The notes: generated by a model not told the origin, from the letters alone. DNA of 64,000 nt from an uncultured Alphaproteobacteria bacterium (GCA_947630965.1 CANRJO010000001.1:5988-69987), one strand, 5' to 3'. Shown: positions 26,777 to 61,300, counted from the stretch's first letter. A program made the numbers and translations.

Positions 26777-27778
26777 ATGACAATGAAATATTTTATCATT
26801 TTTTTATGGTTGGCAGTCATGGCTTTTGTCTTGGGCAAAGCCTTGAGCGTGTATAGACGTTTAAGAAAAAAATTGCGCCAATCCGTCATTTTAAAGTTAA
26901 AAGAAAAGGGGCAGAGTGCGGAGTTTTTTTCAAATTATCTCTTTGAGCAAATTGCGGATATAATCTTTAAGGCGCCGCGTTCAACAAGAAAAAAACTTTT
27001 AGCCGACATACATAATGCTGAAAATAAAGAAATCTCGGCTTATTTAAAAACAAAAAATAAAGCTTTATATCAAGCCTTCAAAGGCAAATACATAATACCT
27101 GAAAAAACATCCGGAAAAGCGGGGCAATTTTTGGCAGCGTGGTATTTTTACAAAAGCGGTGCCGTTCATAAGCTTGAAAAAGCGCTTCAAAAAATTCCGG
27201 CACTTAAACTGACGGCTTTTGAAAAAAATTTGAAAAAAATTTTTGAAGCCGCACGCGCCATGTATGGTGGCGATCTCAAAAAAGCGGCGGAAAAGGCACA
27301 ATCTGCGGCAGATTGGTTTCATAAAAACAATTTTGTTGAAGAAGAGGCAGAAACAGCGCTTTTGCTGTGTGAAGTTTTCAGAATGGCGGGCATGGAAGAC
27401 GCTGCATATTTGTATACGGCGCATGCCAAGAACATTTATGAACAAAAAAACATTAAAACAGGCATAGCAAAAATCAAAGCCTTAAAAGGTGTTGAAGAGC
27501 GTCTTGTGCAAAATTTTGAAGCAGCAGAAAAATCTCTGAGCGAAGCCTTAAAAGTGGCAAGAAAGAATAAACAAGCTGTTCTGGAATGTCAAATTTTAAG
27601 TCAATTGTTGGCACTTTGTGCAGAGACAGGAAATAACAGAAAAAAAGCAACTTACTTAAAAAGCTTGCAACGGCAGGTTAAAAAAATTAATGATAAAGAT
27701 ATTGAAAAGCGCATTCAAAAACAATGCAAAGAGATGAAGAAAAAACGTTTAAATCATATGGGAAAGGGCAAAAGATGA
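26777..27778 (+). CDS. Membrane-anchored TPR-like hypothetical protein
   Basis: N-terminal TM MKYFIIFLWLAVMAFVLG. Helical-repeat (TPR-like) composition. Divergent from the Lon-like gene. Confidence 0.4.
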   Translation: MTMKYFIIFLWLAVMAFVLGKALSVYRRLRKKLRQSVILKLKEKGQSAEFFSNYLFEQIADIIFKAPRSTRKKLLADIHNAENKEISAYLKTKNKALYQAFKGKYIIPEKTSGKAGQFLAAWYFYKSGAVHKLEKALQKIPALKLTAFEKNLKKIFEAARAMYGGDLKKAAEKAQSAADWFHKNNFVEEEAETALLLCEVFRMAGMEDAAYLYTAHAKNIYEQKNIKTGIAKIKALKGVEERLVQNFEAAEKSLSEALKVARKNKQAVLECQILSQLLALCAETGNNRKKATYLKSLQRQVKKINDKDIEKRIQKQCKEMKKKRLNHMGKGKR

Positions 27779-28896
27779 ACATTATCAACATCGTGGAAAA
27801 TTTTTTGTTAAACCCGCAAAATTTGCATCTTTTACTTGCAATTTTGATGTTAATGCCGTTTACCCTTTTTGTAATTTTAACAAGCTTTTTCTCATGGATA
27901 AAGGGAAAAGATCATCAAGAAGAACCTGTCAGGAAAATACCTCCCGATTATAAAAATCTGGAAGACGAGCTTAAGCGCGAGCTTGATTCATATCAAAAAA
28001 AGCGCGCCGAGATTGAGGAAGAAAAAAGAAAAAAAGCCTTAGAAGCGGAAGAAAACCGGAAAAAGCGCGAAAAAACCATTAAGCAATCTGAAAATATGAT
28101 GGATAGCATCAAGGACTTTGCGTTTAATGAGAAAAGCGGGGAGTATGCGACTCTTTTTGCCCTGATTTTAGATCTCATTTCGCGCGACGTGCCCGCAACA
28201 AAAATTGCGCAAATTTTAAAATCTCGCTTTGCATTTATGAGCGAAGATGAGCCCTTAGAAACGGTTGCCGCCTTTGAGGATTTCATTGCTCAACTTCATA
28301 AAGATCAGGAAAATTCAGAAGAAAAATCTAAAAAAATATTAAAGTCTGTTGCCAATGGTGATGTTTCGTCGGTCTTGGAGTTTCTGCATGATAAAGCTAA
28401 GAAAATCACGAAGATTGCTGATACTGAAGCACAGCCCACATTAAAAAGCACGCTTTATGACCAAGTGGCGCAGTTGGCTTGTATTTATAGTATTTTTGCA
28501 CATTTTGAAGAAGATGCTCTGGCATATAAACCATTATCTTTGGCGCTGAAATTTTCGCCCTCAAATGTTGTGGCGTGGAATTTGCTTGGCAATTTTTATT
28601 TGCGGGAGCTTAAGGAAAAAGAGGCTTTTGATGCCTTTGAAAATGTTTTGCAATATGAGGCAGAAACGCCTTTCCAAAGCGCAAATGCGCACAAGTTTTT
28701 ATCATTAAAATCTTATAAAGAGGGGGATTTTTCGTCAGCTTTGAAACATTTTCAAATAGCGCATAATTTTTATGAAACGGTTAAAATAAACCACGAATTA
28801 AGCGCGGAAGACGCTCAAGCCTTGGATATCATTTTATTCCGCCAAAACGTTTCCGCGCTTGTAGATAAGCTTATGGCAAAACAGGGTGGCTATTAA
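27775..28896 (+). CDS. Membrane-anchored coiled-coil/TPR hypothetical protein
   Basis: Start MNIINIV overlaps the upstream stop (ATGA). TM segment, a charged coiled-coil (ELKRELDSYQKKRAEIEEEKRKK), and C-terminal TPR-like repeats. Confidence 0.4.
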   Translation: MNIINIVENFLLNPQNLHLLLAILMLMPFTLFVILTSFFSWIKGKDHQEEPVRKIPPDYKNLEDELKRELDSYQKKRAEIEEEKRKKALEAEENRKKREKTIKQSENMMDSIKDFAFNEKSGEYATLFALILDLISRDVPATKIAQILKSRFAFMSEDEPLETVAAFEDFIAQLHKDQENSEEKSKKILKSVANGDVSSVLEFLHDKAKKITKIADTEAQPTLKSTLYDQVAQLACIYSIFAHFEEDALAYKPLSLALKFSPSNVVAWNLLGNFYLRELKEKEAFDAFENVLQYEAETPFQSANAHKFLSLKSYKEGDFSSALKHFQIAHNFYETVKINHELSAEDAQALDIILFRQNVSALVDKLMAKQGGY

Positions 28897-29889: not shown

Positions 29890-32800
29890 TTATTTTTTCT
29901 TAATTGTGCCTCCGGAGATAAGAGTTTTTCGGGCTGTCGGGCGTAAAAGCCGAGGTTTCTCAGCGGCTTTTTCCTCCAAGACAGAGCTTGAGCCTTGTTT
30001 CTGAATATTCCCTGTCGGAACGCTTTGTGAACGGTAAGAAATAATATTTTCATTTTCTGTAACTGGCTGATCTGCACTTTCATTTGCTTGTGAGAGCAAA
30101 GCAACTTCCGGTTTAGGCTCCACCGCTTCCGGAGTAGGAACACTCATTGGTTCCTTATCTGATTCAATAATTTGGATTCGTTCTTTAATTTTAGGTTGTT
30201 CGCCGTCTGTCGGAACAACTTCGCCATATTCTTCAACATAAACAAGTTTTTTGACATAGGCAAACAAGTTCTCAAGCTGTGTTGTTAAAATTTGAAGTCG
30301 TTCTTGAGTCTGCGTTAAAATGTCAGCCATTTTTTCTTTTTGTTTTTCCAAAACCGCCACATCGGTACTTTGTTCCGCAATATTTTTAACATTTTCGGCA
30401 TCGGTATGGAGTTGATTGACTTGTGAAATGGCGGCCTCAATTTTATGAAGAAAATCTTGTGCCAACGGATCATTATCCAAATCAACGGCGGATTCCAATT
30501 GTTTCAAGCGGATAACATAGGCATTAAGCGTTGTTTTATAGTTCACGGATTTTGTTTGCACATTGTTCACAATATCCATAATTTTTTTATAACTTTGCGC
30601 GGTAGCCGTTTTCAAATCATAGGCATAAATATCAAGAATAGCTTGCTTAATGGTCTGAATTTGCGGTTCGGTGTTTTCTACAAAGGCATTAATTTCAATA
30701 ATATCCTGATCATCAAACTCCTGGTCAGGTTTATGAAGCATAATCTCGAGTCTATTATTCATATCCACAAGCTGCATTTGCTCGACATTGTATCTGTCTC
30801 TGATTTGAGATGTCAGGCTGAGCGGTTTGTATTTTTCAATTAAAGGCATCACATTTTCAACAATCTCTGTTTTCAAACGCTTCACATCTTGTTGCGCCAA
30901 GTCCATTTTTTCATTTAACGCGTTAATTCGAGCATTTTCGGCTTCTTGTTTTTGCCGTTCGATATTTGCCCAATGAGAATCATATTTTTCTTTAAGGGCA
31001 TCCGCTTCAATAATCATATTAGGCATAGAAAGCGTGCCGGTCCATTTAAACAAAATCGGAACAATTCTATCGCTCAAATTTTTAAGTGTTAATTTAAAGT
31101 CTGCCAAAATATCCCAATTTGAAATAACGCCGGAGCCAGTGGCTTCAACGGTAGCCTCTGCGGAATCCATAGCCAAGCTGTTCAATCTGTAATTGCCGTT
31201 TTCAAAAGTCAGATCAGCATTTATTTGTGAAAAGGAAGTTTGACCGGTTGTCAGTTTTTCGCGCAACATATCAAATAAATTATCGGAATAAATGCGGGAG
31301 GTTAAGTCCGTTTCAATATCAGAAAGGTTCCACCCAGTAAAGGTTGGCTGATCAAGCGTCATTTTTAAGTTGCCATTTAAGCCGGAAACAAAATCAGCTT
31401 CTGAAGCGGCAGGTGCATCAAATTCCGCATTTGCGGAAAGCTTGCCCGAAACCCGATAACGACTGCCGCCGACATTATCCAAATCATAATTCTGAATATC
31501 AGCCTGTCCCTTAATCCGAGGTGTTTCAGTCAAATCAAGATCAAATTGGAGCTTGACAGGTGCCTGATGATAATCAGCTGTAAAATCAGCCACATGAATA
31601 GCATTATCCTTAATTCTCAGATTTGTTCGGACATTTTGAAAATCAGTCTGCCCAAAGCTTAAGGTATCCATGGTCAAATTGGCTTCCAAATCAAAAGTTT
31701 TGAAAAAATCAAAGTCATGTGCCGTGGCATTAAAGAGCGGTCTTTCCAAAAACAGGGTATCATTTGTGGTGCCTCGTTTCAAAACAACGCCTTTGGGCTG
31801 ATTGATATTATAAAAGAAGCGCGAGAAGTCAAAATTATTAATGCTTAAATCCGTCATAATAGAGGGACGTTCTGCCATACGGTCAACATTAACAATGCCC
31901 GTAAAGCGGCTAGACCCCACAAAAGTTTCCATATTATCCAAACGCCAGTTTTGGCTATTCCCCGAAACATTGCCTTTTAGGGTAAAAATGTTGATAGCCG
32001 TATTTTGCGGCTTATAATCATACCCCAAGTCTTTAACAAAACTTGTAAAATCAGGGGTCTTAAGTTCTAAGCTGCCGTTAAAGCCAAATGTCTCGGCATC
32101 AGTAAGCGAGCCGGTATAAATAACATGATGCTCATCAAGATTAAATTTTGTATCAACATTGGCCTGTTCAAAGGTTCCATTTAATGTACCTTCCGCATTG
32201 AGTGTTTTGGCTTTATAAATAAGAGGCCAACGAGGCAAAGTGCTTTCAACAAGCGGTAAAAGCGCTGAAAAATCTTGGCTTGAAAGATTAAATTTCAAAT
32301 CCTTAAAATTCGGCACTGTGCCCAGACCGGAAATTTCCGCTTGAGCGTTTAAAGAAGAAGACAAAATGTTATCAATGGTCAATTTGGTAAGATTAATAGC
32401 GCCCTTTTGAGCATCAAAGACAAAATTTAAATTTTCAAACGGTGTTTTATTGTAAATACCAAAGTTGAGCTTTCCGTCAAAATGCACAGTGAGGTCATTT
32501 AAGAAAGATAGCTTATTAAGAAGCGCATTAAGCTTTTGCGTAAAAGGCAAAGCTTGTTCTTCTTCGGTAAGTTGCGGTAAGTAGTTATCCAAGTTGATAT
32601 TATCAGCTTGCACCGCAATAAAATAGCGCAGTTCCGGTTTCCTTACAATCCCTAACAAACCTTGCAGGGCAGATTTATCAACGTTGATAAGATAAGGCTG
32701 TACCCTGATTTGATTAAGGTTACCTGACAGATCAAATTGAGTGGAAGCGTTTTTAAATGTGGAAGGCGCGTATGTTTCCGGTTTAAGCCCGAGCCAAGTT

Positions 32801-34104
32801 AACAAGGCAAGAAAATCTTGTGAAAAAGTTTGCACTTGGAATTTGTAAGAAAGAACTTCATCATTTTCAAAAACATCACCGGTGATGGTGGTTTCTGTAT
32901 CGCCCGGGAGCAAAGCGTTAAAGTCTTTGATGGTCAAAATATCATTTATATATTGAGCGCTCAAATTAAGATTACGCAGATTTTCACCCCGATAAACAGC
33001 TTTAACGGCGCGAATATCAGCCACAATATCATAATCCAAATAAGGGTGGTACAATTTGCCGTTGTCATAAAGTTTTAATTGTTCCATAATCATACCGGCA
33101 ATCGGATCAAGATCCAAATTTGTCATATCAAACTGAATGTTAATAACTCTTTTTTCATTTTTATTAGCGGGTTTTATCAGCGGAATTAAAATATTGCCGG
33201 CACCGGCTGTTTTATCGCCGTATTTAATAATAAAGCTTGATAACCCGATCTGCTGATTGTTAATATTAAGTTCCACGGAGCTTTCCAACGGATAATTATA
33301 TTCTTCCGGCAGAATAAGCTGATTAGCCAAATCATTAATAAACAAAGACGGATTTTTTGATTCCATCGTAAAGTTACCCTTAATTTCATTGGTGCTCACT
33401 TGCACGGAGCCATCAAAGCGGGCATACGACGAGCTTGTCGGGTGCGTAATGGCCAAATTAACGGAGGTGGCAAAACTTTCGGTAATGTTGCCAATGTTCA
33501 AAGCAAAACCGGCAGGGTTATCATCTTTCACAAAATTGCCGTCAATCCGATACGGTCCGTTAAGGCTTTGGGCAGAAATCTCTGCATTCACTTTTTCCAT
33601 AGTTATATCAGCTTCCAGAGCTGGGTTCACAATATGGATAACGGCATCATCAAGCATAATGCTGTTAAAGGCCACATTAAAAGCAGGGGCAAAGTCATCA
33701 TCGCCCACATTTTTTTCAGGTTGCCAATTAAATTTTCCGTCCTTTGAAAACTCAATCAAAATCTTTGGTTTACGCAGCACCATTTTGTTAACTTCAAAAG
33801 AGCCTTTCAAAAGCTCAAGCAGACTTAAATCGCTGACCAACTCTTCAATAGAGGCAAGGGGTGTTTGATCTTGCGCCTGTTTAGGATTAAAAATTTTAAT
33901 ATCTTGCGCCGTAAGTGTCGGTTTTGGGAAAAAGTCAAGTGAAACAGGCCCGTTAAAGACAATTTTTTTACCTGTAATTTGTTCAAACTGCAAAGCAATT
34001 TTATCTTTGTGTAAATTCCAATCAATCGTTGAAACGTAAAACGAAACACCAACCGACGCCAAAACAGCAAGCACCGCAAATGTGAGAAATATTTTTTTAA
34101 ACAC
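29890..34104 (-). CDS. Giant AsmA-family (AsmA/TamB-like) envelope protein with a C-terminal coiled-coil and Pro/Glu-rich tail
   Basis: About 1400 aa. N-terminal TM anchor, a long beta-rich body typical of the AsmA-like superfamily, and a C-terminal coiled coil of about 300 aa. Start set at a GTG preceded by AGGAGA (the track ATG at 34233 would run into the divergent cdd promoter). The start is uncertain. Confidence 0.55.
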   Translation of the reverse strand: MFKKIFLTFAVLAVLASVGVSFYVSTIDWNLHKDKIALQFEQITGKKIVFNGPVSLDFFPKPTLTAQDIKIFNPKQAQDQTPLASIEELVSDLSLLELLKGSFEVNKMVLRKPKILIEFSKDGKFNWQPEKNVGDDDFAPAFNVAFNSIMLDDAVIHIVNPALEADITMEKVNAEISAQSLNGPYRIDGNFVKDDNPAGFALNIGNITESFATSVNLAITHPTSSSYARFDGSVQVSTNEIKGNFTMESKNPSLFINDLANQLILPEEYNYPLESSVELNINNQQIGLSSFIIKYGDKTAGAGNILIPLIKPANKNEKRVINIQFDMTNLDLDPIAGMIMEQLKLYDNGKLYHPYLDYDIVADIRAVKAVYRGENLRNLNLSAQYINDILTIKDFNALLPGDTETTITGDVFENDEVLSYKFQVQTFSQDFLALLTWLGLKPETYAPSTFKNASTQFDLSGNLNQIRVQPYLINVDKSALQGLLGIVRKPELRYFIAVQADNINLDNYLPQLTEEEQALPFTQKLNALLNKLSFLNDLTVHFDGKLNFGIYNKTPFENLNFVFDAQKGAINLTKLTIDNILSSSLNAQAEISGLGTVPNFKDLKFNLSSQDFSALLPLVESTLPRWPLIYKAKTLNAEGTLNGTFEQANVDTKFNLDEHHVIYTGSLTDAETFGFNGSLELKTPDFTSFVKDLGYDYKPQNTAINIFTLKGNVSGNSQNWRLDNMETFVGSSRFTGIVNVDRMAERPSIMTDLSINNFDFSRFFYNINQPKGVVLKRGTTNDTLFLERPLFNATAHDFDFFKTFDLEANLTMDTLSFGQTDFQNVRTNLRIKDNAIHVADFTADYHQAPVKLQFDLDLTETPRIKGQADIQNYDLDNVGGSRYRVSGKLSANAEFDAPAASEADFVSGLNGNLKMTLDQPTFTGWNLSDIETDLTSRIYSDNLFDMLREKLTTGQTSFSQINADLTFENGNYRLNSLAMDSAEATVEATGSGVISNWDILADFKLTLKNLSDRIVPILFKWTGTLSMPNMIIEADALKEKYDSHWANIERQKQEAENARINALNEKMDLAQQDVKRLKTEIVENVMPLIEKYKPLSLTSQIRDRYNVEQMQLVDMNNRLEIMLHKPDQEFDDQDIIEINAFVENTEPQIQTIKQAILDIYAYDLKTATAQSYKKIMDIVNNVQTKSVNYKTTLNAYVIRLKQLESAVDLDNDPLAQDFLHKIEAAISQVNQLHTDAENVKNIAEQSTDVAVLEKQKEKMADILTQTQERLQILTTQLENLFAYVKKLVYVEEYGEVVPTDGEQPKIKERIQIIESDKEPMSVPTPEAVEPKPEVALLSQANESADQPVTENENIISYRSQSVPTGNIQKQGSSSVLEEKAAEKPRLLRPTARKTLISGGTIKKK

Positions 34105-34207
34105 CCTGATAATTCTCCTGTAACAAACGCAAAAAGTCTTTGCCAAACACAAGATTATTTTATAATATTCAAAGTATAAATCAACAAGTTTTTGAAAGGA
34201 AGTTAAA

Positions 34208-34609
34208 ATGACAACCCTTGAACAACTTTTCACGGCGGCACTTGAGGTGCGTCAAAAGGCTTATGCGCCATATTCCAAGTTTGCGGTTGGCGCGGCGCTA
34301 AAGGGCACAAACGGCAAAATTTATACAGGCTGTAATGTTGAAAACGTTTCATTTCCTTGCGGAACTTGTGCCGAAGCGGGCGCTGTTGCAAGTATGAACG
34401 CCGATGCTTGCCGCCTGATAAAAGAGATTGTGATTGTGGCGGATTCTCAAACACTAATCACCCCTTGTGGGGCATGCTTGCAACGCTTGGCTGAGTTTTC
34501 GGATTCAAAAACAAAAATCCATTTGGCAAATTTGAAAGGTGTTCAAAAATCTTGCACGCTTACGGAGCTTTTGCCGATGTCTTTCGCGGAAAAGGGACTG
34601 AAGAAATGA
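34208..34609 (+). CDS. cdd: Cytidine deaminase
   Basis: 133 aa. Zinc ligands CAE and PCGTC (CGNVENVSFPCGTCAEAG; second site PCGAC). Confidence 0.9.
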   Translation: MTTLEQLFTAALEVRQKAYAPYSKFAVGAALKGTNGKIYTGCNVENVSFPCGTCAEAGAVASMNADACRLIKEIVIVADSQTLITPCGACLQRLAEFSDSKTKIHLANLKGVQKSCTLTELLPMSFAEKGLKK

Positions 34610-35409
34610 TCAAAAAATATGTTCAAAACCTGAAATCTTTTTTAAAAAATCACAAGCCCGAAACGCTGATTATTTTGGGCTCCGGTTTGGGTGCCTTAGC
34701 ACAGAATATTGAGCATGCCCAAAAAATTTCTTATGAAAATTTAGGCTTCCCGAAGATTAATGTGAGTGGTCATGCGGGGCAACTAACGCTCGGGCGTGTC
34801 GGCGGTAAAGACGTACTTTTAATGGAAGGGCGTTATCATCTTTATGAAGGGCACCAACCGGAGCTGATTAAAGATCTTTTAAGTGCTTTTGCCGCTGTCG
34901 GTATCAAGAGGCTTGTTGTCACAAATGCTGCGGGCTCGCTTAACCCCAAGATAAAAGCCGGCAGTGTGGTTATTATCAAAGACCACATCAATTTAAGCGG
35001 CAAAAATCCGTTAATCGGCGTTAATAATGATTCTTTGGGACCGCGCTTCCCGAGCATGAATAATGTTTATGACGTCTCTGAGCGGAAAAAACTCAAGAAA
35101 ATAGGGGCGCGTATGGGGCTGAAATTAAGAGAGGGGGTTTACATGATGGTTTTAGGACCAAATTTTGAGACGCCCTCGGAAGTTCGAGCATTCAGACGCT
35201 TGGGGGCTGACATGGTCGGGATGTCCACGGTAACGGAGGTTATCACGGCGGCATATTTATCTATGCCTGTGACGGGGCTATCGGTTATCACCAACATGGC
35301 GGCGGGCTTGCAAAAAACGGCGCCCTCGCATGCCGAAACGCTTGAAATGGCTCAAAAAGCTTCCCAAACATTAGTCGCCTTATTACATGCTTATTTAGAG
35401 GAGTTATAA
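34606..35409 (+). CDS. Purine nucleoside phosphorylase (PNP/MTAP family I)
   Basis: Start MIKKYV overlaps the cdd stop (ATGA). LIILGSGLG, HAGQL and VTNAAGSL motifs of trimeric PNP. Confidence 0.82.
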   Translation: MIKKYVQNLKSFLKNHKPETLIILGSGLGALAQNIEHAQKISYENLGFPKINVSGHAGQLTLGRVGGKDVLLMEGRYHLYEGHQPELIKDLLSAFAAVGIKRLVVTNAAGSLNPKIKAGSVVIIKDHINLSGKNPLIGVNNDSLGPRFPSMNNVYDVSERKKLKKIGARMGLKLREGVYMMVLGPNFETPSEVRAFRRLGADMVGMSTVTEVITAAYLSMPVTGLSVITNMAAGLQKTAPSHAETLEMAQKASQTLVALLHAYLEEL

Positions 35410-35410
35410 G

Positions 35411-36706
35411 ATGTTTCCGCAGGAGATTATTCGTCAAAAACGCGATAAAAAAACATTAACAGCGGATGAAATTCGTTTTTTTATCAAAGGCGTTGCCGAT
35501 GCTTCCATTGCTGATTGTCAAGCTTCTGCCTTAACAATGGCAATTTTTTTAAACGGCTTAAACAAGGCGGAAACGGTGGCACTTACCTTAGCCATGCGTG
35601 ATTCGGGCGATGTCTTAAAATGGCACTTGAACGGTCCAGTCATTGATAAACACTCCACCGGTGGCGTGGGCGATAAAGTAAGTTTGATGTTGGCACCGAT
35701 CTTGGCGGTATGCGGTGGCTATGTCCCGATGATTGCGGGCAAAGGGCTCGGACATACGGGCGGCACCATAGATAAGCTCGATTCTATCAAGGGCTACCAA
35801 ACCTTAGCGGATAACAAAACATTTCAAAAAACGGTCAAAGAAGTAGGTTGCGCCATTGTCGGGCAGACGGCAAATTTAGCTCCTGCGGATAAAAAACTTT
35901 ATGCCCTGCGCGATGTTTGTGGCACGGTAGAATCAATCCCGCTGATTACGGCCTCCATTCTTTCCAAAAAGTTAGCGGCCGGTCTTGAATATCTGGTCAT
36001 GGATCTCAAATGCGGCAAAGGTGCTTTTATGCCTGATTTAAAACACGCCAAAGCGCTTGCAAAAACAATTGAGGAAACGGCAAATGACGCAGGAACAAAA
36101 ACCACGGCGCTCATTACGGACATGAATGAAGTTTTGGGCAATTCTGTCGGCAACGCCATAGAAGTGCGCGAGGCTTTGGCTTACTTAAAAGGCGAAACGC
36201 CGGAACATCGTTTAGATGAAGTCACGCGGTCATTAGCGGTCAATCTGCTTGTAAGCGCCAAACTTTATAAAACGAAAAATGAGGCGGCGGCGAATGTCGA
36301 AAAAGCCATCAAAAGCGGTGCGGCGCTTGAAAAATTTGCACAAATGGTGAGGGCGTTGGGCGGTGCATCTGATTTTATTGAGAAGCCTGAAAAATATTTG
36401 CCCCAAGCCAAAATTGTGCGCCCTGTTTTTGCCAAGAAAGAAGGTTTTGTGGAAGAAATGGACATTCGCGAAATCGGCATGCTATTGGTAGGCTTAAAAG
36501 GCGGTCGCACACATCCGGATCAAAAGCTTGATTACGCAACGGGGTTGAGCGCGTTTTGCCACATTGGCGATAAGCTAGATGCCAAAACACCTTTAGCTTT
36601 CGTTCATGCCCAAACGGAAGAAGATTTTACAAAAACGGCAAGCGCCTTGCAAAAGCTTATCAAGGTTGGTTCTCAAAAGCGCCAAAGCAAAGTTATTTTG
36701 TCTTAG
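35411..36706 (+). CDS. deoA: Thymidine (pyrimidine-nucleoside) phosphorylase
   Basis: 431 aa. DKHSTGGVGDKVSL glycosyltransferase family 3 motif, GHTGGT. Confidence 0.9.
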   Translation: MFPQEIIRQKRDKKTLTADEIRFFIKGVADASIADCQASALTMAIFLNGLNKAETVALTLAMRDSGDVLKWHLNGPVIDKHSTGGVGDKVSLMLAPILAVCGGYVPMIAGKGLGHTGGTIDKLDSIKGYQTLADNKTFQKTVKEVGCAIVGQTANLAPADKKLYALRDVCGTVESIPLITASILSKKLAAGLEYLVMDLKCGKGAFMPDLKHAKALAKTIEETANDAGTKTTALITDMNEVLGNSVGNAIEVREALAYLKGETPEHRLDEVTRSLAVNLLVSAKLYKTKNEAAANVEKAIKSGAALEKFAQMVRALGGASDFIEKPEKYLPQAKIVRPVFAKKEGFVEEMDIREIGMLLVGLKGGRTHPDQKLDYATGLSAFCHIGDKLDAKTPLAFVHAQTEEDFTKTASALQKLIKVGSQKRQSKVILS

Positions 36707-39113
36707 ATTTGCTTGACTTTTGAACTTCAGGCTCAGCAGGTTGATCGCCATTATGAAGCACAATTTGCTGAAACGGAATTTCAATGCCTTCTTCTTCAAA
36801 GCGGCGGTTGATTTCATAACGCAACTCGCTTGGCAAAACCCAACCTGACCAAATGTTGTTGGAATAACAACGCAATTCGAAATCAAGCGAACTAGCACCG
36901 AAGTCTTGGAACAAAACATAAGGTGCGGGCACTTTCAAAACTTTTTTATTGTTGCGCGCACATTCAAGCAAAATTTCCGTCACTTTATTAACATCTGTGC
37001 CATACGCCACGCCAACCTTAACGGATTGACGTGTCCAGTTGTTGCCATGCGTCAAATTTTTCATGGACGAGGAAATCAAAGTGGCGTTCGGGATAATAAC
37101 GCTTGTTTTGTTAAACGTTTCAAGCTCCGTGGAGCGGATATTGATTTGTTTAATTTGCCCTTCTTCACCGTTTAAGATGACCCAATCGCCAATTTTAAAG
37201 GGGCGTTCAAACAAGATGATAATACCCGAAACAAAGTTATTAATGATGTTTTGCAACCCGAAACCGATACCAACCGAGAGCGCACCGGCAATAACCGCAA
37301 GGCTTGTGAGATCGCCGCCCATCACCACAATAGCCAACAGCGAGGAAAGGATAAACCCGACAAAGCTGACCCCTGATGAGAGCGAATGCTTAATGCCATC
37401 ATCAATATCAAGCTGTGAAAAGACATTAACCGTCAGCCGATTCTTCAGATATTTCACCAAAGCAAGCGAACCGAAAAAGACCACCACGCCAAAAACAATA
37501 GCGATCAAAGAAATTGTTACACCGCCAACTTTAAAGCCGAAGAGCAGTTTGCGGGCAATGTGCAGAATGAATGTTCCCGAAAATCCCCAAATATTTAAGA
37601 GCGCGAAAATAAAAAGCAGACTGATAAGCGGTGTCAAAAATAAGTTTAGCCCGAAGTTAATTTTTCTTAAAAGCTTGCGCCGCAGTCTGAAAGTTTTGCT
37701 CCAAAAGCCCATGAGCAACAATCGTTTCAAAAGTTCTGCTGAAAGTTTATTAACAATAATCAAAAGCCCAAGCAAAACAGCGGTTGAAACAATTCGGTTC
37801 AAAATAAAGGAAGCAAGCCAAATGTAGCCGAACAAAGAGAGTGAAAACGTAATAAAAGCAACAAAGAAAGTCAGGAAAATAACTTTAAATGATGTACTGA
37901 AATGCCCATCATCGTCATCATCATCTTCCGCATTAGCGGAGGTGCTTTCTGTCGCATTATCAACGGATTGTTCAGTTTCATTTTCCGCAAAAATGCGCGT
38001 AATCAGGAGTGCCACGGAAAACGCCTTAACCGCACAAGCAATCATGACCAAAAAGTTTGTTAAAATGGTGGAGTAACCCTCTGAAAGTGCAATGTGCTCC
38101 AAGAGCGAAATTGCGCCAATCATCACAATGGCAATATAGAGCGCATACACAATACCGATGGCTTTGGGTGTTTTTACATTAATCAGACGCCACCTTTCAT
38201 TATAAGGCGCAAAGGTCACGCGAGCAAGCGCTTTGGCAAGAAAAACGTACAGAAGATAATAAAGCGTACTGGTCACAACTGTCCCAAAGAAAGTGCCCTC
38301 AAAAATCTGTGACCCGATGATTGTGGCCAAAAAGCCACCGATGATTGTGGAAGGGATAACGCCATACCCAATCGCAACGGCAATAGCCGCCAAAATCTTT
38401 TGACCATAGCGCGGGTTATCAATGTCAGAGCGATACCCGAATGCACGCATAATAAGCCGCCGCAGCATAAACCCAATCCAAAACGTGCCAATCAAAAGGA
38501 AGAGTGCAGGCAAAATATAATTTAAAACATGGTTTTGAGTTTCAGTATCAAGAGTCCTAAACCACACAAGGGGCGATTTTGCGATATCCCATATAAAGGC
38601 AATTAAGGCTTTAAGCCCTGTCAGAAAAGTGGAGGGCTGAATATATATTTCCTGCCGGAGTAAAAGTTTACCCAAAACATTTTGATTGCGCGCATTAATA
38701 AATGCCAAATTCAAATCATCAATACGCACCTGCAATACGTCAGCCTCAGCTATACGGCTGCGCACAAGAGCAAGTTCATCAGAAAGTTCTTTACGTTTTT
38801 GTGCAATAATCGGTAATTCTTTTGTGCCGTCTTTCGGTTCTTCGCCCATAGCATCGAGTTGTTTTTGCAGACTGCGGGCGCGGCGTTCATTTTCTTGCTT
38901 GGAAGCGGCAAGTTGGTTGGAAACATCATAAAGATAAGAAGTATTTTCCTCAAGCCCTGAAAGGTTAAAAGAATTATCTTTCAGCTTATTTTCAAGATCG
39001 CTCAAGCCCTTGGAAAATTCAACAAACTTTGCGTCTTCGGTGGTTTGGGCAGCCAATGCCGGCATACTTATCAAAAACAGCGCTAAAAGACAAAACCTGA
39101 AATATTGAAGCAT
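36693..39113 (-). CDS. MscS-family mechanosensitive channel (MscK/KefA-like, large N-terminal extension)
   Basis: 806 aa. Signal peptide, periplasmic coiled coil, multiple TM segments, a C-terminal MscS pore/vestibule domain (PFKIGDWV...G.V..I..R.T..RT), and a poly-Asp stretch. Confidence 0.78.
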   Translation of the reverse strand: MLQYFRFCLLALFLISMPALAAQTTEDAKFVEFSKGLSDLENKLKDNSFNLSGLEENTSYLYDVSNQLAASKQENERRARSLQKQLDAMGEEPKDGTKELPIIAQKRKELSDELALVRSRIAEADVLQVRIDDLNLAFINARNQNVLGKLLLRQEIYIQPSTFLTGLKALIAFIWDIAKSPLVWFRTLDTETQNHVLNYILPALFLLIGTFWIGFMLRRLIMRAFGYRSDIDNPRYGQKILAAIAVAIGYGVIPSTIIGGFLATIIGSQIFEGTFFGTVVTSTLYYLLYVFLAKALARVTFAPYNERWRLINVKTPKAIGIVYALYIAIVMIGAISLLEHIALSEGYSTILTNFLVMIACAVKAFSVALLITRIFAENETEQSVDNATESTSANAEDDDDDDGHFSTSFKVIFLTFFVAFITFSLSLFGYIWLASFILNRIVSTAVLLGLLIIVNKLSAELLKRLLLMGFWSKTFRLRRKLLRKINFGLNLFLTPLISLLFIFALLNIWGFSGTFILHIARKLLFGFKVGGVTISLIAIVFGVVVFFGSLALVKYLKNRLTVNVFSQLDIDDGIKHSLSSGVSFVGFILSSLLAIVVMGGDLTSLAVIAGALSVGIGFGLQNIINNFVSGIIILFERPFKIGDWVILNGEEGQIKQINIRSTELETFNKTSVIIPNATLISSSMKNLTHGNNWTRQSVKVGVAYGTDVNKVTEILLECARNNKKVLKVPAPYVLFQDFGASSLDFELRCYSNNIWSGWVLPSELRYEINRRFEEEGIEIPFQQIVLHNGDQPAEPEVQKSSKSKTK

Positions 39114-39124
39114 CGTTACAATCC

Positions 39125-40126
39125 TTATTTTGTAAAGAGAAGTTTCATAACCTTAAAAGCATTTTGAGCCGTTGTGGCGCGCAAATTATCTGCCACGCAC
39201 CAAAAACTAAAACCGTTTTCGGTGGAAAGATCCTGCCGTAAACGGCTGATGTAAACAGCATCTTCGCCTTGCACATCATTAAGACTGACATATCCGGCAT
39301 CAACTTGCTTGTCAAAAACAACCACGCCGTCTGTTTCCGACATCAACTTGCGCGCGGCGTCAATATCTGTTTCAGTGGCGCATTCCACATTTACAAACGC
39401 ACCCAAGCCGATAAACGCCGGGACAAAAGCCGCGTTGGCATGCACTTTCAAATTACCGCCCAAAACCTTTTTAATTTCCGCGTTAAACGCCCACTCAAAA
39501 TCGGTATCTTCACCGATAAATTTGCCCACTTGCGGCAACACATTAAAAGCAATTTGCTTGTGAAACACATTTTCATCATCGGCAAGCGTTGCATTCATAA
39601 AAATCTTACGTGTCTGATTAAAAAGTTCATCCATGGCGGGCTTGCCGTAAACGGAAGTGGAGGCATAAGCCGAAATCACAAGTCGCACAATCGGAAATTG
39701 CGCATTCACCTTGGCAAGCGGAAGCAAAACCTGTGTGGTAAGCGCCGAGGGCACGGCAATCACCTTTGCGCCTTTGGCAGCCTGATTATTTAGCCCAGCA
39801 ACAACCATTGGCACGCCAGAATCTGAAAATGTGGCAGCGCTCATATCAATAACCACATTGGAGGAAGCGGCGGCTTTGGAAATATACTTTTTCGCAACAT
39901 CAGCTTCAGTTGCAAAAAACACGCATTCAGTTTGAGAAAAGTCAAATTCTTCCGGAGCATAGACGTCTAATTCATCATCTTCGCCGTATGAAACCATATT
40001 CCCCATCGGGCTTTTGGGCTCAAGCGCAAAAACATCAGAGGCGGCAACGCCGTTTTCACTTAAAAGGGAAAGCAACTCGCGTCCCGTATTATCCATGGCA
40101 CCGACAACAGCAAATTTTGTCATCAT
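39125..40126 (-). CDS. Aspartate-semialdehyde dehydrogenase homolog with a degenerate active site (probable pseudoenzyme)
   Basis: Asd family blocks MDELFNQTR, IAFNVLP and AVYISRLRQD...DNLR are conserved. The catalytic Cys motif I-A-N-P-N-C-S-T reads IAVPSALT. GATGNVG reads GAMDNTG. The His block is lost. Confidence 0.7.
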   Translation of the reverse strand: MMTKFAVVGAMDNTGRELLSLLSENGVAASDVFALEPKSPMGNMVSYGEDDELDVYAPEEFDFSQTECVFFATEADVAKKYISKAAASSNVVIDMSAATFSDSGVPMVVAGLNNQAAKGAKVIAVPSALTTQVLLPLAKVNAQFPIVRLVISAYASTSVYGKPAMDELFNQTRKIFMNATLADDENVFHKQIAFNVLPQVGKFIGEDTDFEWAFNAEIKKVLGGNLKVHANAAFVPAFIGLGAFVNVECATETDIDAARKLMSETDGVVVFDKQVDAGYVSLNDVQGEDAVYISRLRQDLSTENGFSFWCVADNLRATTAQNAFKVMKLLFTK

Positions 40127-40173: not shown

Positions 40174-40725
40174 TTATTTATCTTCTGCGTGAATGATTTT
40201 AAATTCAAGTGCAGGCAACAAACTTCTGCCGCCGGCTTTCATATCAGTAACATAAAAAGTGGCGTTCCAGATGTCGGCGCAGGTATAAGGGCTTAAGTAT
40301 TGCAGTGTGCCGACATTCACGGTTTCGCCCACGGGTACTTTGATGTTGTTTTTCACTAAATTTGAGCCATACGGCTTACGTTCTTCGGTTTTACCGCGTC
40401 CTGAAAAGCGGATACGTGTTTGCTCAAACGATTTCGCCCAGTCATAATCGCCTTTTTGGGCGGTTTTATAGATATTGAGCGTAAATTTAATATCTTTAAT
40501 ACGCTTGTTGGAAACGCATTGCGGCGAGCTTGGCAACAAATCGGAAATATTAAACAAGAGCTCCACCTCATATTTTTGATTAACAGCGCGGATGGTTGTA
40601 TCGCTTTTCATGGAAACTTCCCAATCGGTGCTTTGGGAAACAACATCCGGAAACCCGCTTTCTTGTGCCGAAAGCGCAAAAGGGCTGAAAATGAGAGTAA
40701 AAAGAAAAAGGCAAAATTTTTTCAT
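40174..40725 (-). CDS. Secreted hypothetical protein
   Basis: Signal peptide MKKFCLFLFTLIFSPFALSA. Start set at the second Met. Confidence 0.4.
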   Translation of the reverse strand: MKKFCLFLFTLIFSPFALSAQESGFPDVVSQSTDWEVSMKSDTTIRAVNQKYEVELLFNISDLLPSSPQCVSNKRIKDIKFTLNIYKTAQKGDYDWAKSFEQTRIRFSGRGKTEERKPYGSNLVKNNIKVPVGETVNVGTLQYLSPYTCADIWNATFYVTDMKAGGRSLLPALEFKIIHAEDK

Positions 40726-40897
40726 AACAATCTCCTTTGGAAAACACAGCATTCAATTTAAAATTAATTTACCCGTTTCGCAACAAAAAAGAATTCAAAA
40801 ATCAGATTCTTTTCAAAATTCAGAAAATTAAGTTTACAAACCGCTCAAAAATCTGCTTTCAAGTAAAAAAGGGCACAAAGAAATCATCGATTCGCTT

Positions 40898-40930
40898 ACA
40901 AAAAAACACGGCACTGAAAGTACCGTGTTA
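40898..40930 (-). terminator. Rho-independent terminator after rplQ
   Basis: The minus strand reads AACACGGTAC-TTTC-AGTGCCGTGTT followed by a T-run. Confidence 0.55.
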
Positions 40931-40961: not shown

Positions 40962-41507
40962 TTATTCAGCTTTCGCTTTTTTAGTTTTTGTTGCCTTTTT
41001 CTCTGCTTTTTCCGATTGAGTTTCTTCTTTAGAAGCTTTTTTCTCAGCTTTCACTTCTTCAGCAGGAGCCTCTAAAGCAGCTTCTGCGGCAGCGGCGGCA
41101 GCCTTTTCAGCAGCAACGCGAGCCAAATCTTTAGCGCCTTTCACGTTGACATCACGGTCAACAAGCTCAATAATGGCCATCGGAGCGCAATCGCCGTATC
41201 TAAAACCGGCTTTCACAACGCGTGTATAACCGCCTTTGCGGTCTTTATAGCGTTCTGCCAAAGTGGAGAAAAGCTTGGAAACAACTTCATTATCGCGTAA
41301 AAAGGCAAGAGCCAAGCGACGGCTGTTCAGATCGCCTTTTTTGGCATAAGTGATCATACCGTCAGCAAAAGTGCGGAGCTCTTTTGCACGGGTTAAAGTT
41401 GTGCTGATTTGTTCATGCGTCAGCAAAGCATTTGTTAAGTTAGAGAACAAAGCTCTGCGTTGGCTTTTCGGCATATTAAAGCGTCTATGTTGATCGCCGT
41501 GTTTCAT
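40962..41507 (-). CDS. rplQ: 50S ribosomal protein L17 with an Ala/Lys/Glu-rich C-terminal extension
   Basis: MKHGDQHRRFNMPKSQRRALFSNL matches the L17 N-terminus. Start moved to this Met, which follows an AAGGAA RBS. Standalone: there is no rpoA upstream. Confidence 0.88.
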   Translation of the reverse strand: MKHGDQHRRFNMPKSQRRALFSNLTNALLTHEQISTTLTRAKELRTFADGMITYAKKGDLNSRRLALAFLRDNEVVSKLFSTLAERYKDRKGGYTRVVKAGFRYGDCAPMAIIELVDRDVNVKGAKDLARVAAEKAAAAAAEAALEAPAEEVKAEKKASKEETQSEKAEKKATKTKKAKAE

Positions 41508-41674
41508 GGTATATTCCTTTCTTTTCTCAAATGTCTTGATGGTCAAGACGGGTAAACACAAGGTCTTTACCACAGCACTTTAGGTTGAAGAGCTTCAAAC
41601 CAAGGCGCTATGTATAAAAACCACATTTGTAGCGCGCTTTTACCACACCTTTTTCAAAATTGCAACACCTTTTT

Positions 41675-57887: not shown

Positions 57888-58355
57888 TTAAACCACAATG
57901 TGCTTCAAAATATGCTCAAGCACCTCTGGAGCAGATTGTTTAAAATCTATGGATATGCCTGTGCTTTGACAACTTTGGGAGCGGTTATTATAAAGGCAAA
58001 AAGGCGTTTCAAATGTTTCGCCATAAAGAGGCGAATCATCAATATGGAAAGCAATGCCTTCTTTAAGACAAAATTGAGCTTTTGCCTTATTCCAAAGATC
58101 GTCATCAACCTTAAAAGAGCCGTCTGCCAAAAAAGAAACCTTATGTTGCGCATCATAAAAGTCCAGGATGGAAAAAATTTCAGAATAGGGAATTTTTTGC
58201 GCCAAAAGATATTTTTGAATTTCCGCTTTGCGCCCGCCGCTCAAAATATAAATGCGAATACCTTTTTGCAAAGCAAGGGTATTAAATTCTCTAAAAAAAG
58301 CGGGATTATCGGTAATCACTCCATGGTAATCTATGCCGATTTTAAGGTTCATCAT
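57888..58355 (-). CDS. HAD-superfamily (5'-nucleotidase-like) small hydrolase, tentative
   Basis: An N-terminal IDYHGVI stretch where HAD motif I (DxDGT) is expected. About 155 aa. Weak assignment. Confidence 0.4.
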   Translation of the reverse strand: MMNLKIGIDYHGVITDNPAFFREFNTLALQKGIRIYILSGGRKAEIQKYLLAQKIPYSEIFSILDFYDAQHKVSFLADGSFKVDDDLWNKAKAQFCLKEGIAFHIDDSPLYGETFETPFCLYNNRSQSCQSTGISIDFKQSAPEVLEHILKHIVV

Positions 58356-61300
58356 ACCCTCCCGATGGCTCTGAAAACAAATCTTTAATAGAGTTCGGAC
58401 TCAAGACGGAAAGCGGATTAATTTCAATTTTAGGATTATCCAATTTCCCTTCCACGGCATAATTAACGGCAAAAATTGTGCCGTCTTTGCCCGCCAATGC
58501 TGTACCAACAAGAGGTATTCTGCCCAAAAACTGATTAATGCTATACGCCGGTGAGACAATCCCTTTGAGCTTAACATCCTGCGTTGTTTTGTTCACGGTG
58601 CCGTTAGCATTAATTCCCAAAACATTGCCGAACATATTAGCGTTTTTCAAGAACAGGATGCTGTTTTTATATTCAAACGGGGCGTCAAAGTGTGAAAATG
58701 ATAAGCCTTCGCCGGTCAGCAAATCCACAATACCGCTAAAGGAAGCCACAGTTAAGACTTTGGCAAGAAGCGGTGTGTTATGTATGCTGAAATCGCGGAT
58801 ACGGGCATGCCCGATAAAGTTTTTATTTTGATCGCGTTTTGCCTCAATTTTCAAAATACCGCCGGTCATATTGTCGTAAAGGCGCAACACGCGCAAGGTG
58901 CTTCCAGCATTATTACTGTCAATAAAGAGCATGTGCTCATTATTCGGGCGCGGGGCATAGTCAAGCTTGAGCTTAATAGATTTATCCGTACCAAAATTAC
59001 CAAAAACATGCATTTCATCAAGCCCGATACCGTTTTTGAAATTAGCACTCGCTGCCACGTTGCGGATGGAAGTTTTAGGGTTTGTCCAAAGTTTTTGAAC
59101 GGAAATGAACACATCTGTATCAGGCATATTTTCAAGCGCGTCAGCGGAATCCGTAGCTGTTTCGGGTGTTTTTTGAGCAAGAGTATCTTTTTTCTCAAGG
59201 TTTTCATAAAGAGGCGTCAGGTCATAACTTTTACCGTTCACATCAATTTTAACCAGACTTTGCGCACCATTTTCTTTATATGACAAATCTATTTTAGCTT
59301 TAGCAGACGTGCGGGGTCCCTCAATTTTTTCAATGTTGATACTTTTTAACAATCCTTGTTGGTTAATGTCCAACTTACCGGCTAAATCAAATTCATTTTT
59401 ATGGAGTGCAAACATCGGTACGGCGGATAATTTTTCATCAATAAATTCAATTTTGGCTTTTATTTGCCCGCTTTCTTCCAAAGGTTTAACAAAGCCCAAA
59501 AAGGCATAATCAATGGCAGCGTGTGTTAAATCAGCCTCAGCGTCAATATAAGTGTGTTGCTCATCTAAAACGGTAATATCGGCAGTTACATCAGCATAAC
59601 CTTCAATATACGGGGCGCGTAAAATGGCAGATTGAAAACCGAGCTTTTTCTCAACTTCCTCATCAAGACGGAATTTTACTTGCGCCTTACTTTTATAATC
59701 GCGCGGTTTAAAAGATTCGTCCACTTCAAGCGCAAAGGAAATTTCATCTAAAGAGGCATTACCTTTTACAAAAAAGCCCTGATTGTCAACCGTAAGCTCT
59801 AAATCAGAGGCTTTGGCATGATGCCCCTTAATTTCCTTTAAGAGTTCCACATCGGTTAGCTTAGCTTTCACATCAACCTTCACATCATCCGGCTTAAGAT
59901 CGTGAGAAAGTTCAAAATCAAGCCCGAGGTCAATATCAACATCGCCCTTAATTTCGTTCGGATTAATCCCCATTTCTTTGGTAAAGTTCAGCGGCGGATT
60001 ATCAATATACCGAAGCGCATCGGTAATGGTAGAATTTCCCTGCAGATTGATTTTGATAAAGTTATGAGTTTTGTTCAAATCATAAAGCAAAACGTTGCCA
60101 TCCGTTAAGATAATGCCATCTGAAACGCCCTTATCTGCATGGATATCAATGCTTGATTCATCAAAAAGGGCAGTTCCGTAAACATGTTCAACGGCAGGCA
60201 GCCCCTCTAAATAAGAGATAGAGGCATCAGAGGCGTATGCTTTGCCGTCAAGCTTTTGAAGCCCAAAGGTACGTGTTTTGTCAGAAAAACCGAATTCAAA
60301 AGTAAAACGCCCGTCAGTTGCCGTACCGGCATACAGATTTTTTTGGCACCATTCCCAAGCAGGCTCAGCCAGATACCGTGGCCAAAACTTAGATAAATCA
60401 GGCAAAGAAAACTGATCAATCTCGGCAGTAAAGATAATTTTGAGATCATCTAAAGCGCGTTCAAACAAAAATTTGCGATAACCGCTGATATCTAGGCTTA
60501 AGCGCGTTTTTTGCCCGCCTGTTTCAAAATCAGCGTTTTGAATGCTGATTTTGTTCATATCACCCGTGATAGAGCCATCCAGAACAAACGAATCAATCGC
60601 GTAATTAAATTTTTCTTCTTCATTAAACACCACTTCGCCGGCATGCCCATGAATATTGAAGTTAATTTTTTTTATGGCGGTGTCTAGTTCCTCGGTCAAA
60701 TTATCGCGGTGTTGCAAAATCTGATTAAAATCCATTAAAGCCGTGATGGAGCCGTCAATCGGCACATTAATCCGAAAAGTGGAATCCGGTTCAGGGGTCA
60801 CCAAATCGGCAGGCAAAAAGTCGGCAAAAGAGGTTTTCACGGTCAGCCCGTTATTTAAGGGGCTATAGATAGCCTTAACCCCCAAAGAAGCAAGCCTATC
60901 TTTCAAATCAAGCACACCGTCCGCTTGAAGTTCCAGATTAAGTAGGTTGCGCTTAAAATTAAAAGCCACATCTTTGAATTGCCATTGGCGAGCCAAATCC
61001 ACTTCATGAAATTCAACTTCCGCCTCTTCAATCGAAATTTCATTAATGTAGCTTTCGGGATAGATTTTTTCATCAGCATTAAAACGCTCCAAAAAGCCCT
61101 CAAACCAATCCACATAGAGTTCAAATTTTTTCTTATTCAGTTCGTTTGTTTTGCCTTCTTCCAAGCCATAAGTTGTGAAAATGGAAACTTTCGGATGATA
61201 AACATGCACAGTACTTGGGGCAATAATACCGTTTAAGAGTGCACGCACGCTAAACGAAAGTGAAAGGTTTGGCGTATAAACGGCAAAGGTATCATCATTT

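Follow-up and report, generated by a model that had tools for sequence, protein, structure and literature searches.

The gene asdL, which lies in a 64,000-nucleotide stretch of DNA from an uncultured Alphaproteobacteria bacterium (GCA_947630965.1, CANRJO010000001.1:5988-69987; the whole stretch is referred to here as the window), encodes a protein that has the fold of an aspartate-semialdehyde dehydrogenase (Asd) and lacks the residues with which such an enzyme works. We think, with moderate confidence, that AsdL is a pseudoenzyme in the service of the MscK-like mechanosensitive channel whose gene comes next, and that this partnership is why it has been kept. A functional partnership is favoured because the residue loss coincides with purifying selection on asdL and with a conserved operon of single origin that was retained while other synteny decayed. 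The two genes are:

39125..40126, minus strand: asdL, an Asd-fold protein with catalytic, substrate-binding and NADP-binding residues all replaced
36693..39113, minus strand: MscK/MscM-like mechanosensitive channel of 806 aa, directly downstream of asdL

An initial annotation of this DNA had described an intact, full-length Asd-like reading frame of 333 aa, and this description holds: the open reading frame (ORF) starts with ATG, has no internal stop and matches both Asd Pfam domains, Semialdhyde_dh (PF01118, E-value 2.8e-14) and Semialdhyde_dhC (PF02774, 2.4e-25). A phmmer alignment to the PDB places it on Asd2 of V. cholerae (2qz9, E-value 5e-39). A structural model, as the same annotation had called for, was made with AlphaFold2 (AF2; mean predicted local distance difference test score 85, predicted template-modelling (TM) score 0.84), and it shows the Asd fold with a TM score of 0.86 to 2qz9. 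While the two-domain fold is thus present by Pfam and by the model, none of the residue sets that define Asd (EC 1.2.1.11), that is the Cys, the His, the cofactor residues and the substrate residues, is found in AsdL. The family models are divided, as AsdL scores 240.7 with the NCBIfam Asd equivalog PRK14874 (cutoff 223) and 210 with TIGR01296 (cutoff 324.2). Both nr and the NCBI pipeline name the family "aspartate-semialdehyde dehydrogenase", a name that is almost certainly wrong; since the protein fails at the residue level in every respect, asdL should not be filed as Asd.

The residues were compared in a MAFFT alignment of 54 canonical alphaproteobacterial Asd sequences with 67 members of the asdL clade. 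The canonical proteins carry G12, R100, N127, C128, Q155, G159, E210, K213, R234, H241 and K317 without exception (54/54), whereas C128, R100, Q155, E210, K213, R234 and H241 occur in none of the 67 clade members. Position 128 is instead occupied by Ala (52), Pro (8) or Ser (7), and no Cys is conserved at any other position of the family either. In AsdL itself, R100, E210 and R234 are all replaced by Phe and K213 by Ala, and the cofactor contacts Q155, G159 and K317 are likewise replaced. The affected segments, of which one (KVHAN) is considered further below, are the following:

40082..40102, minus strand, residues 9-15: GAMDNTG, once the GxxGxxG dinucleotide loop, with Asp in place of the central Gly in AsdL; of the 67 clade members, 47 have Glu there, 10 Asp and 6 Asn
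39737..39760, minus strand, residues 123-130: IAVPSALT, the former IANPNCST active-site loop, with Cys128 replaced by Ala and Asn127 by Ser
39485..39505, minus strand, residues 208-214: TDFEWAF, formerly TKEEWKM, with the substrate-binding Glu210 replaced by Phe and Lys213 by Ala
39434..39448, minus strand, residues 227-231: KVHAN, with K227, H229 and N231 invariant in the core clade, its sister clade and the homologue P0123, and variable in canonical Asd
39395..39433, minus strand, residues 232-244: AAFVPAFIGLGAF, in which the former substrate Arg (of RVP) is Phe234 and the former catalytic His (of GH) is Leu241

All sequence blocks quoted in the initial annotation are present, namely GAMDNTG (9-15), IAVPSALT (123-130), MDELFNQTR (165-173), IAFNVLPQ (192-199), FIGLGAF (238-244), AVYISRLRQD (290-299) and DNLR (313-316), and they had been set in the right register: phmmer places IAVPSALT on IANPNCST, FIGLGAF on FYGHAEA and GAMDNTG on GATGAVG of 2qz9. 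The loss of the catalytic Cys (now Ala), the His (now Leu) and the central Gly of the NAD-binding motif (now Asp), which had been read from these blocks, is found by both phmmer and MAFFT. That list was correct but incomplete, as the residues that bind phosphate and substrate have disappeared as well, and with them the cofactor motifs SGxG and KGAA. According to the titles of PDB entries, the residues mutated in H. influenzae Asd are R103, C136, E243, K246, R270 and H277, and these correspond to residues that are lost in asdL; since crystallographers chose exactly these positions, the lost residues represent the functional set. Judged by its residues, AsdL is incapable of Asd chemistry and of canonical NADP binding. 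As a homologue of an active enzyme that lacks essential catalytic residues it falls under the general definition of a pseudoenzyme, and it would have arisen from an Asd ancestor of the alphaproteobacterial type by keeping the fold and giving up NADP(H) binding, substrate binding and thioacyl formation.

This degenerate form is neither rare nor recent. A homologue search that covered 5.8 billion proteins yielded at least 120 clusters at 58-96% identity, which are 332-338 aa long or slightly extended and carry the same substitutions throughout. In a separate scan of the GTDB species genomes it turned up in 25 species, all of them uncultured Alphaproteobacteria of human, mouse, chicken and ruminant guts, including "Azospirillum sp. 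51_20" and metagenome-assembled genomes of the RUG, RGIG and HGM series, which we take to belong to the GTDB order RF32. The family is well set apart from its enzymatic relatives: in the GTDB scan, identity to AsdL is 54-66% for the asdL form and 38-45% for canonical Asd, which came from Rhodospirillales, SAR116, Micavibrio and Rhizobiales, and after clustering at 50% identity the family is reduced to one full-length representative, beyond which the score of the next match falls from 429 to 268 bits.

The comparison of nonsynonymous with synonymous substitution rates (dN/dS) across relatives, which the initial annotation had proposed as a check, gave a ratio of 0.035 at dS 0.72 against a 96% identical homologue (locus L081) and of 0.08 against one of 79% identity (L082). 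Other genes in the same comparisons gave 0.054 (ribosomal protein L17), 0.10 (thymidine phosphorylase) and 0.054-0.076 (the channel), so that the values of asdL are as low or lower. Averaged over the alignment columns, 40 diverse members are 67% identical, and no frameshift or stop was seen in asdL in more than 150 relatives. AsdL is kept by strong purifying selection and is not a pseudogene. Two alternatives had originally been offered, a pseudoenzyme derived from Asd with a non-catalytic role and an early-stage pseudogene; the second is refuted by the intact frames and the unrelaxed selection, and the first is supported by the fixation of the losses in a deep clade, by the low dN/dS values and by the pattern of positions that were kept and newly constrained.

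This pattern can be resolved further by comparing the asdL clade with canonical Asd. While 62 positions are conserved with the same residue in both, 40 have turned variable, 18 are newly conserved and 5 have switched to another residue. Identity among clade members is 51% in the former NADP domain, which drifts faster, and 70% in the C-terminal domain. The new constraints that the asdL core has in common with its sister clade (K227, H229, N231, R173, E207, N215, D284, Q298 and S307) are in the C-terminal domain and away from the face of the old active site. As estimated from beta-strand periodicity, the K-x-H-x-N strand that contains the first three of these residues exposes them on the face opposite to the Arg of the former active site, a placement more in keeping with a protein-protein surface than with a remodelled pocket. 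The most conserved stretch of AsdL (residues 165-199) is also the least confident part of the monomer AF2 model; this would be compatible with a segment that orders only when a partner binds, and a shallow alignment could explain it equally well.

The candidate partner is a channel of the MscS family. Besides a signal peptide it possesses about 11 hydrophobic segments, a periplasmic domain that spans about 170 aa and, at about residues 627-790, a cytoplasmic MscS domain; its pore helix is GALSVGIGFGLQNIINNFVSG (also written GALSVGIGFGLQN). The NCBIfam models for MscK, MscM and MscS match over residues 532-804, and the domains PF00924 and PF21082 are present on its orthologues at 93.5% (L081) and 78% (L082) amino-acid identity. 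Among solved structures, E. coli MscK (7uw5, E-value 5e-45) is the closest, with channel residues 533-793 aligned to MscK 840-1100, so that the pore helix and the beta and alpha/beta cytoplasmic domains that make up the MscS core are all there. It is not MscK in the strict sense, as it scores 218.8 with the MscK equivalog NF008438 (cutoff 991) and aligns with its C-terminal third alone; it also falls far short of the MscM equivalog cutoff. The loop between hydrophobic segments 5 and 6 contains a run of six Asp residues (AEDDDDDDG, about residues 397-403, 37903-37923 on the minus strand), and the sequence of this loop is not conserved across the family. The two genes meet at a short junction without a terminator-like site:

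39114..39124, minus strand: junction between asdL and the channel gene, 11 nt, TAA-GGATTGTAACG-ATG, with an AAGGA Shine-Dalgarno sequence that straddles the asdL stop codon

The pairing of these two genes, which the initial annotation had left out, is conserved over a large evolutionary distance. Both closest relatives (L081 and L082) have the genes adjacent, and in 23 of the 25 GTDB species the channel gene is located directly downstream of asdL on the same strand; in another locus (L022) it is one ORF away. Other synteny is scrambled, the next most shared neighbour cluster occurring in only 7 GTDB loci. The reverse test, a metagenome scan with a channel alignment, gave the same picture: all 26 loci that encode a channel at least 41% identical and include upstream DNA have asdL directly upstream, while asdL was not found upstream of any channel of at most 40% identity (8 loci from guts and over 20 from the environment, with 1.2 kb or more of DNA upstream). 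Nor does such a channel occur within 10 kb of canonical asd (0 of 55 loci). The intergenic gap, determined for 47 distinct pairs, has a median of 19 nt, does not exceed 42 nt in 45 of them and is an overlap in 5, a spacing that, together with the Shine-Dalgarno sequence over the stop codon, is compatible with translational coupling.

The pairing also extends beyond the core of the family. A sister clade (P0124, P0134, P0162, P0167 and P0203) is about 40% identical to the core, and its N-domain, with 24% identity, is not recognised by Pfam; all five of its genes have a channel gene of this kind behind them, in some cases with a 4-nt overlap. A neighbour-joining tree unites the asdL core and the sister clade in one clade (bootstrap 0.98), and in the channel tree 45 paired channels together with that of L022 form one clade (bootstrap 1.00) apart from 28 unpaired channels. 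The internal branching of the two trees matches, with L019 and L024 standing beside the sister clade in both. By both trees, the pairing is ancient, of single origin and co-descended, and this co-directional adjacency across deep divergence is what the logic known from KefF would lead one to expect of a channel accessory subunit. Eight residues are conserved in paired channels only, five of them in the cytoplasmic domain (including N692 and W758), which lends the partnership weak support. In three sister-clade loci (L084:8001-13894, L170:2125-8047 and L171:6001-11825) asdL and the channel gene are followed on the same strand, with overlapping frames, by genes for a MurL-like epimerase and a MurD-like ligase, and this run lies downstream of a divergent hisS. 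These genes may form a four-gene operon that ties the asdL-channel module to cell-wall synthesis.

How could a degenerate dehydrogenase serve a channel? Both proteins would be made from one message with coupled translation. As AsdL has no signal peptide or membrane segment, it should be cytoplasmic and could meet the channel only on the cytoplasmic side, at its loops or its C-terminal vestibule. There it would most likely bind as an accessory subunit and, once bound, might tune the gating, assembly or stability of the channel. That AsdL binds the channel directly is a tentative proposal, to which we give somewhat less than an even chance. With a little more reserve we suggest a specific form of it, in which AsdL, an accessory or regulatory subunit of a kind not described before for MscS-family channels, would be a metabolic dehydrogenase that has lost all its chemistry, docks on the heptameric vestibule of the MscK-like channel of gut Alphaproteobacteria and sets its gating or assembly, and possibly descended from the resident asd after the lineage quit making aspartate semialdehyde.

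Several observations weigh against a channel partnership or against its closer form. MscS-family channels are heptameric in every solved entry and Asd is a dimer, and we know of no precedent for such a symmetry mismatch, nor of an accessory subunit for any MscS-family channel. A fusion of asdL with the channel gene was not seen. Adjacency is not obligatory, since one locus (L020) has an intact asdL and no channel gene within 10 kb and since L022 and L126-128 have larger gaps between the two genes. The channel residues that are specific to the pairing are few, and several of them are conservative changes. The tight adjacency could in part have persisted because a spacer of 10-40 nt leaves little room for rearrangement, and the conserved polar residues of AsdL could mark a new catalytic or ligand site instead of an interface.

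Comparable arrangements exist in which oxidoreductase-fold proteins are accessory subunits of ion channels, as in KefF-KefC and KefG-KefB of E. coli and in Kv-beta-Kv1. By analogy, AsdL would be another soluble cytoplasmic protein with a nucleotide-binding fold that is paired with a membrane channel, and the Kef accessory genes, like asdL, are located directly upstream of the channel gene with overlapping or abutting frames. The analogy ends at the cofactor, which KefF and Kv-beta retain along with some enzyme activity and for which AsdL has lost the site, and at the presumed partner, which for AsdL is an MscS-family channel. The channel resembles MscK and MscM (E. coli kefA and yjeP; 7uw5, 11sm) in its C-terminal MscS part, signal peptide, periplasmic domain and many transmembrane segments, but with 806 instead of 1120 aa it is shorter than MscK, has a much shorter periplasmic domain and belongs to a distinct clade defined by the pairing with asdL. 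Canonical Asd of the asd_B type (TIGR01296/PRK14874; V. cholerae Asd2, 2qz9 and 2r00) and AsdL agree in the two-domain fold and in length, AsdL being 38-45% identical to alphaproteobacterial Asd, and the 62 common positions include MDELF.Q, K.IAFN..P, SR.R.D and DN.R; canonical Asd differs by keeping all functional residues and by its genomic context, which often includes leuB, whereas asdL precedes the channel gene. Another degenerate relative is USG-1 (E. coli usg; P. aeruginosa homologue 2hjs), which like AsdL has the Asd fold without the canonical His and no assigned function, and the P-C-A motif of which stands in the same register as P-S-A of AsdL. The USG-1 homologue keeps GATGSVG and a Cys, unlike AsdL, and usg belongs to the pdxB-usg-truA operon and is not located beside a channel gene. 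An assignment of AsdL to the USG-1 family was rejected, as its scores are below both cutoffs (PRK05671/PRK08040; 167.4 against 284 and 148.7 against 273).

It is unlikely, in our estimation, that AsdL has a moonlighting or structural role apart from the channel, such as the regulation of some other protein, in which case the adjacency would reflect an inherited operon and would mean co-expression only. The locus that keeps asdL and lacks the channel would suit such a role, as would the existence of many other Asd-like clusters without Cys or His, of which P0127 has no adjacent channel gene. An unrelated role would not lead one to expect, however, that the pairing persists from 96% down to about 40% identity while all other neighbours have been shuffled, that the asdL and channel trees define matching clades, and that the spacing is kept at a translational-coupling distance.

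Also rather improbable, by a similar judgement, is a neofunctionalised enzyme or small-molecule binder with a new site, for example around K227, H229, N231, R173 and D284, whose ligand would be tied to osmoregulation or to the cargo of the channel; co-expression with the channel would then suffice and binding would not be needed. The 18 positions that gained constraint and the 5 that switched, several of them polar or charged and common to the sister clade, would agree with a new site, and so would the very strong conservation of the gene. The literature ties aspartate semialdehyde to mechanosensitive channels solely via ectoine gene clusters, but ectoine genes or genes of another pathway were not found near asdL. 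A new site would further have to be reconciled with the destroyed dinucleotide loop, with an N-domain that drifts fast, as its divergence from the sister clade indicates, and with variable hydrophobic residues that occupy the old pocket. A catalytic rescue based on Ser127, the only candidate nucleophile, was considered and rejected, as the sister clade has R, S, S, H and A at this position.

It is very improbable that asdL is a pseudogene decaying in a host-dependent bacterium that has lost the aspartate pathway: aspartate-pathway genes are indeed absent from the DNA surveyed below, but all relatives examined have an intact frame, the deep clade is of fixed length (332-338 aa), new positions have come under constraint, and the selection analysis refutes this reading. 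Just as improbable is a working Asd whose residue loss is an alignment artefact, for although the PRK14874 score and the database name speak for Asd, three independent alignments (phmmer to the PDB, MAFFT) agree, conserved anchors flank each motif, the family has no conserved Cys and TIGR01296 falls short of its cutoff.

A partly degenerate homologue (P0123) bears on the origin of asdL. It keeps the Arg of the FR motif, the Gln and the Glu, and lacks the Cys, the RVP-Arg, the His and the central Gly, and its position in the tree is unresolved. Its gene is flanked by a divergent leuB-like gene on one side and by the N-terminus of an MscK-like ORF (hidden Markov model (HMM) E-value 3e-13) on the other. 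The order leuB-asd is the common canonical arrangement, with leuB directly before canonical asd in 17 of 55 loci. When this synteny was checked as evidence of orthology, no asdL-like gene other than P0123 was found behind an Iso_dh gene; this context hints at a possible descent of asdL from the resident asd. The Iso_dh gene upstream of P0123 (L088:530-1651 and L087:3018-3503) fits leuB best, with 141 bits against a cutoff of 353 and 25-28% identity to canonical LeuB, and it is cut to 161 aa in L087. It may be a second biosynthetic gene that is degenerating or has been repurposed.

Loss of Asd residues as such is not a peculiarity of asdL, since Asd-like proteins without Cys or His are common in metagenomes. 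Among the 141 nearest full-length representatives at 50% identity (P0121-P0270), 78 lack the Cys, the His or both (49 both, 25 only the Cys, 4 only the His), with the register taken as aligned for the most divergent ones. The clusters that fall outside the asdL clade belong to unrelated lineages whose grouping is unsupported. Degenerate Asd-like proteins seem to be widespread and undescribed, and none of those from metagenomes was found in the literature searched. A further example is encoded by Caenispirillum salinarum AK4 (NZ_ANHY01000008.1, L045:10001-11002), where the Asd-like protein lacks the Cys (VATPSTIT), reads GATSNVG and still has both His and FR-Arg. This degenerate relative is an independent one, and its gene has no channel gene as neighbour.

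A canonical asd was not found beside asdL, as searches with tblastn (Thalassospira Asd) and with a broad Asd HMM recovered only asdL itself within 10 kb in any locus. The aspartate pathway was probed with E. coli DapA, DapB, DapD, DapE, DapF, LysA, LysC, ThrB, ThrC and MurE, the sequences of which served as probes only and which work on canonical asd loci, where dapF was found in 15. Neither the 64-kb window nor 787 kb of clade DNA, which is a fraction of any one genome, contains an aspartate-pathway gene; the sole match in the clade DNA is a generic M20 hydrolase that scores below all DapE cutoffs. Annotation of the whole window with Pfam and NCBIfam revealed housekeeping genes only, and the window (1-64000) contains no tRNA gene and no Rfam family at the gathering threshold, hence no lysine riboswitch. 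Two features precede asdL in its direction of transcription:

40174..40752, minus strand: predicted secreted protein of 192 aa without family match, directly upstream of asdL
40905..40929, minus strand: strong terminator-like hairpin with an 11-bp stem, after rplQ

The gene for the secreted protein may be on the same transcript as asdL. It is kept only in the closest of the relatives examined, L082 (74% identity, dN/dS 0.14), and is therefore not a part of the conserved module. The hairpin is the probable upstream boundary of the transcription unit of asdL. The L17 gene rplQ (40962-41573, minus strand) encodes a protein extended at its C-terminus by about 70 residues with a high content of Ala, Lys and Glu, and it is preceded in the window by hemW and not by rpoA. 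On the other side, a nucleoside-salvage cluster (34208-36706, plus strand) with a 133-aa ORF, a purine-nucleoside phosphorylase and the thymidine phosphorylase runs towards the channel gene, with the 3' end of which it shares 14 nt, an overlap also present in L082; by its position relative to L082, the 133-aa ORF is likely a cytidine deaminase. Large envelope proteins of the AsmA family (1447 aa) and the YhdP family (1076 aa) are encoded at 29890-34233 and 58342-61572, both on the minus strand, and together with the genes for LptB, LptC/LptA-like proteins, KdsD and Lgt in the window they indicate a typical diderm envelope. ORFs of 190-390 aa without Pfam or NCBIfam match are located within 26777-28896 (plus strand), 4310-5950 (plus strand) and 40174-40752 (minus strand).

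The literature searched, which was queried for Asd pseudoenzymes, operons of Asd with mechanosensitive channels, USG-1 and RF32 metabolism, contained nothing relevant, and the conserved operon of asdL with an MscK-like channel gene was not found in it either. These findings suggest that asdL encodes a pseudoenzyme recruited to a channel. Since the family is named Asd, metabolic reconstructions of the gut and rumen Alphaproteobacteria in question, which are abundant though uncultured, will credit these organisms with the branch-point enzyme of lysine, diaminopimelate, threonine and methionine synthesis, which at the asdL locus they probably do not have. At the same time, asdL offers a clear example from bacteria of how an enzyme of central metabolism has been wholly converted, with 11 functional positions lost, 18 newly constrained and a selection as strong as that on ribosomal proteins. 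MscS-family channels are thought to act alone; if the partnership is real, a co-descended partner of such a channel would raise the testable question of a cytoplasmic regulation of the MscS family, and both genes are small and could easily be co-expressed in E. coli strains that lack such channels.

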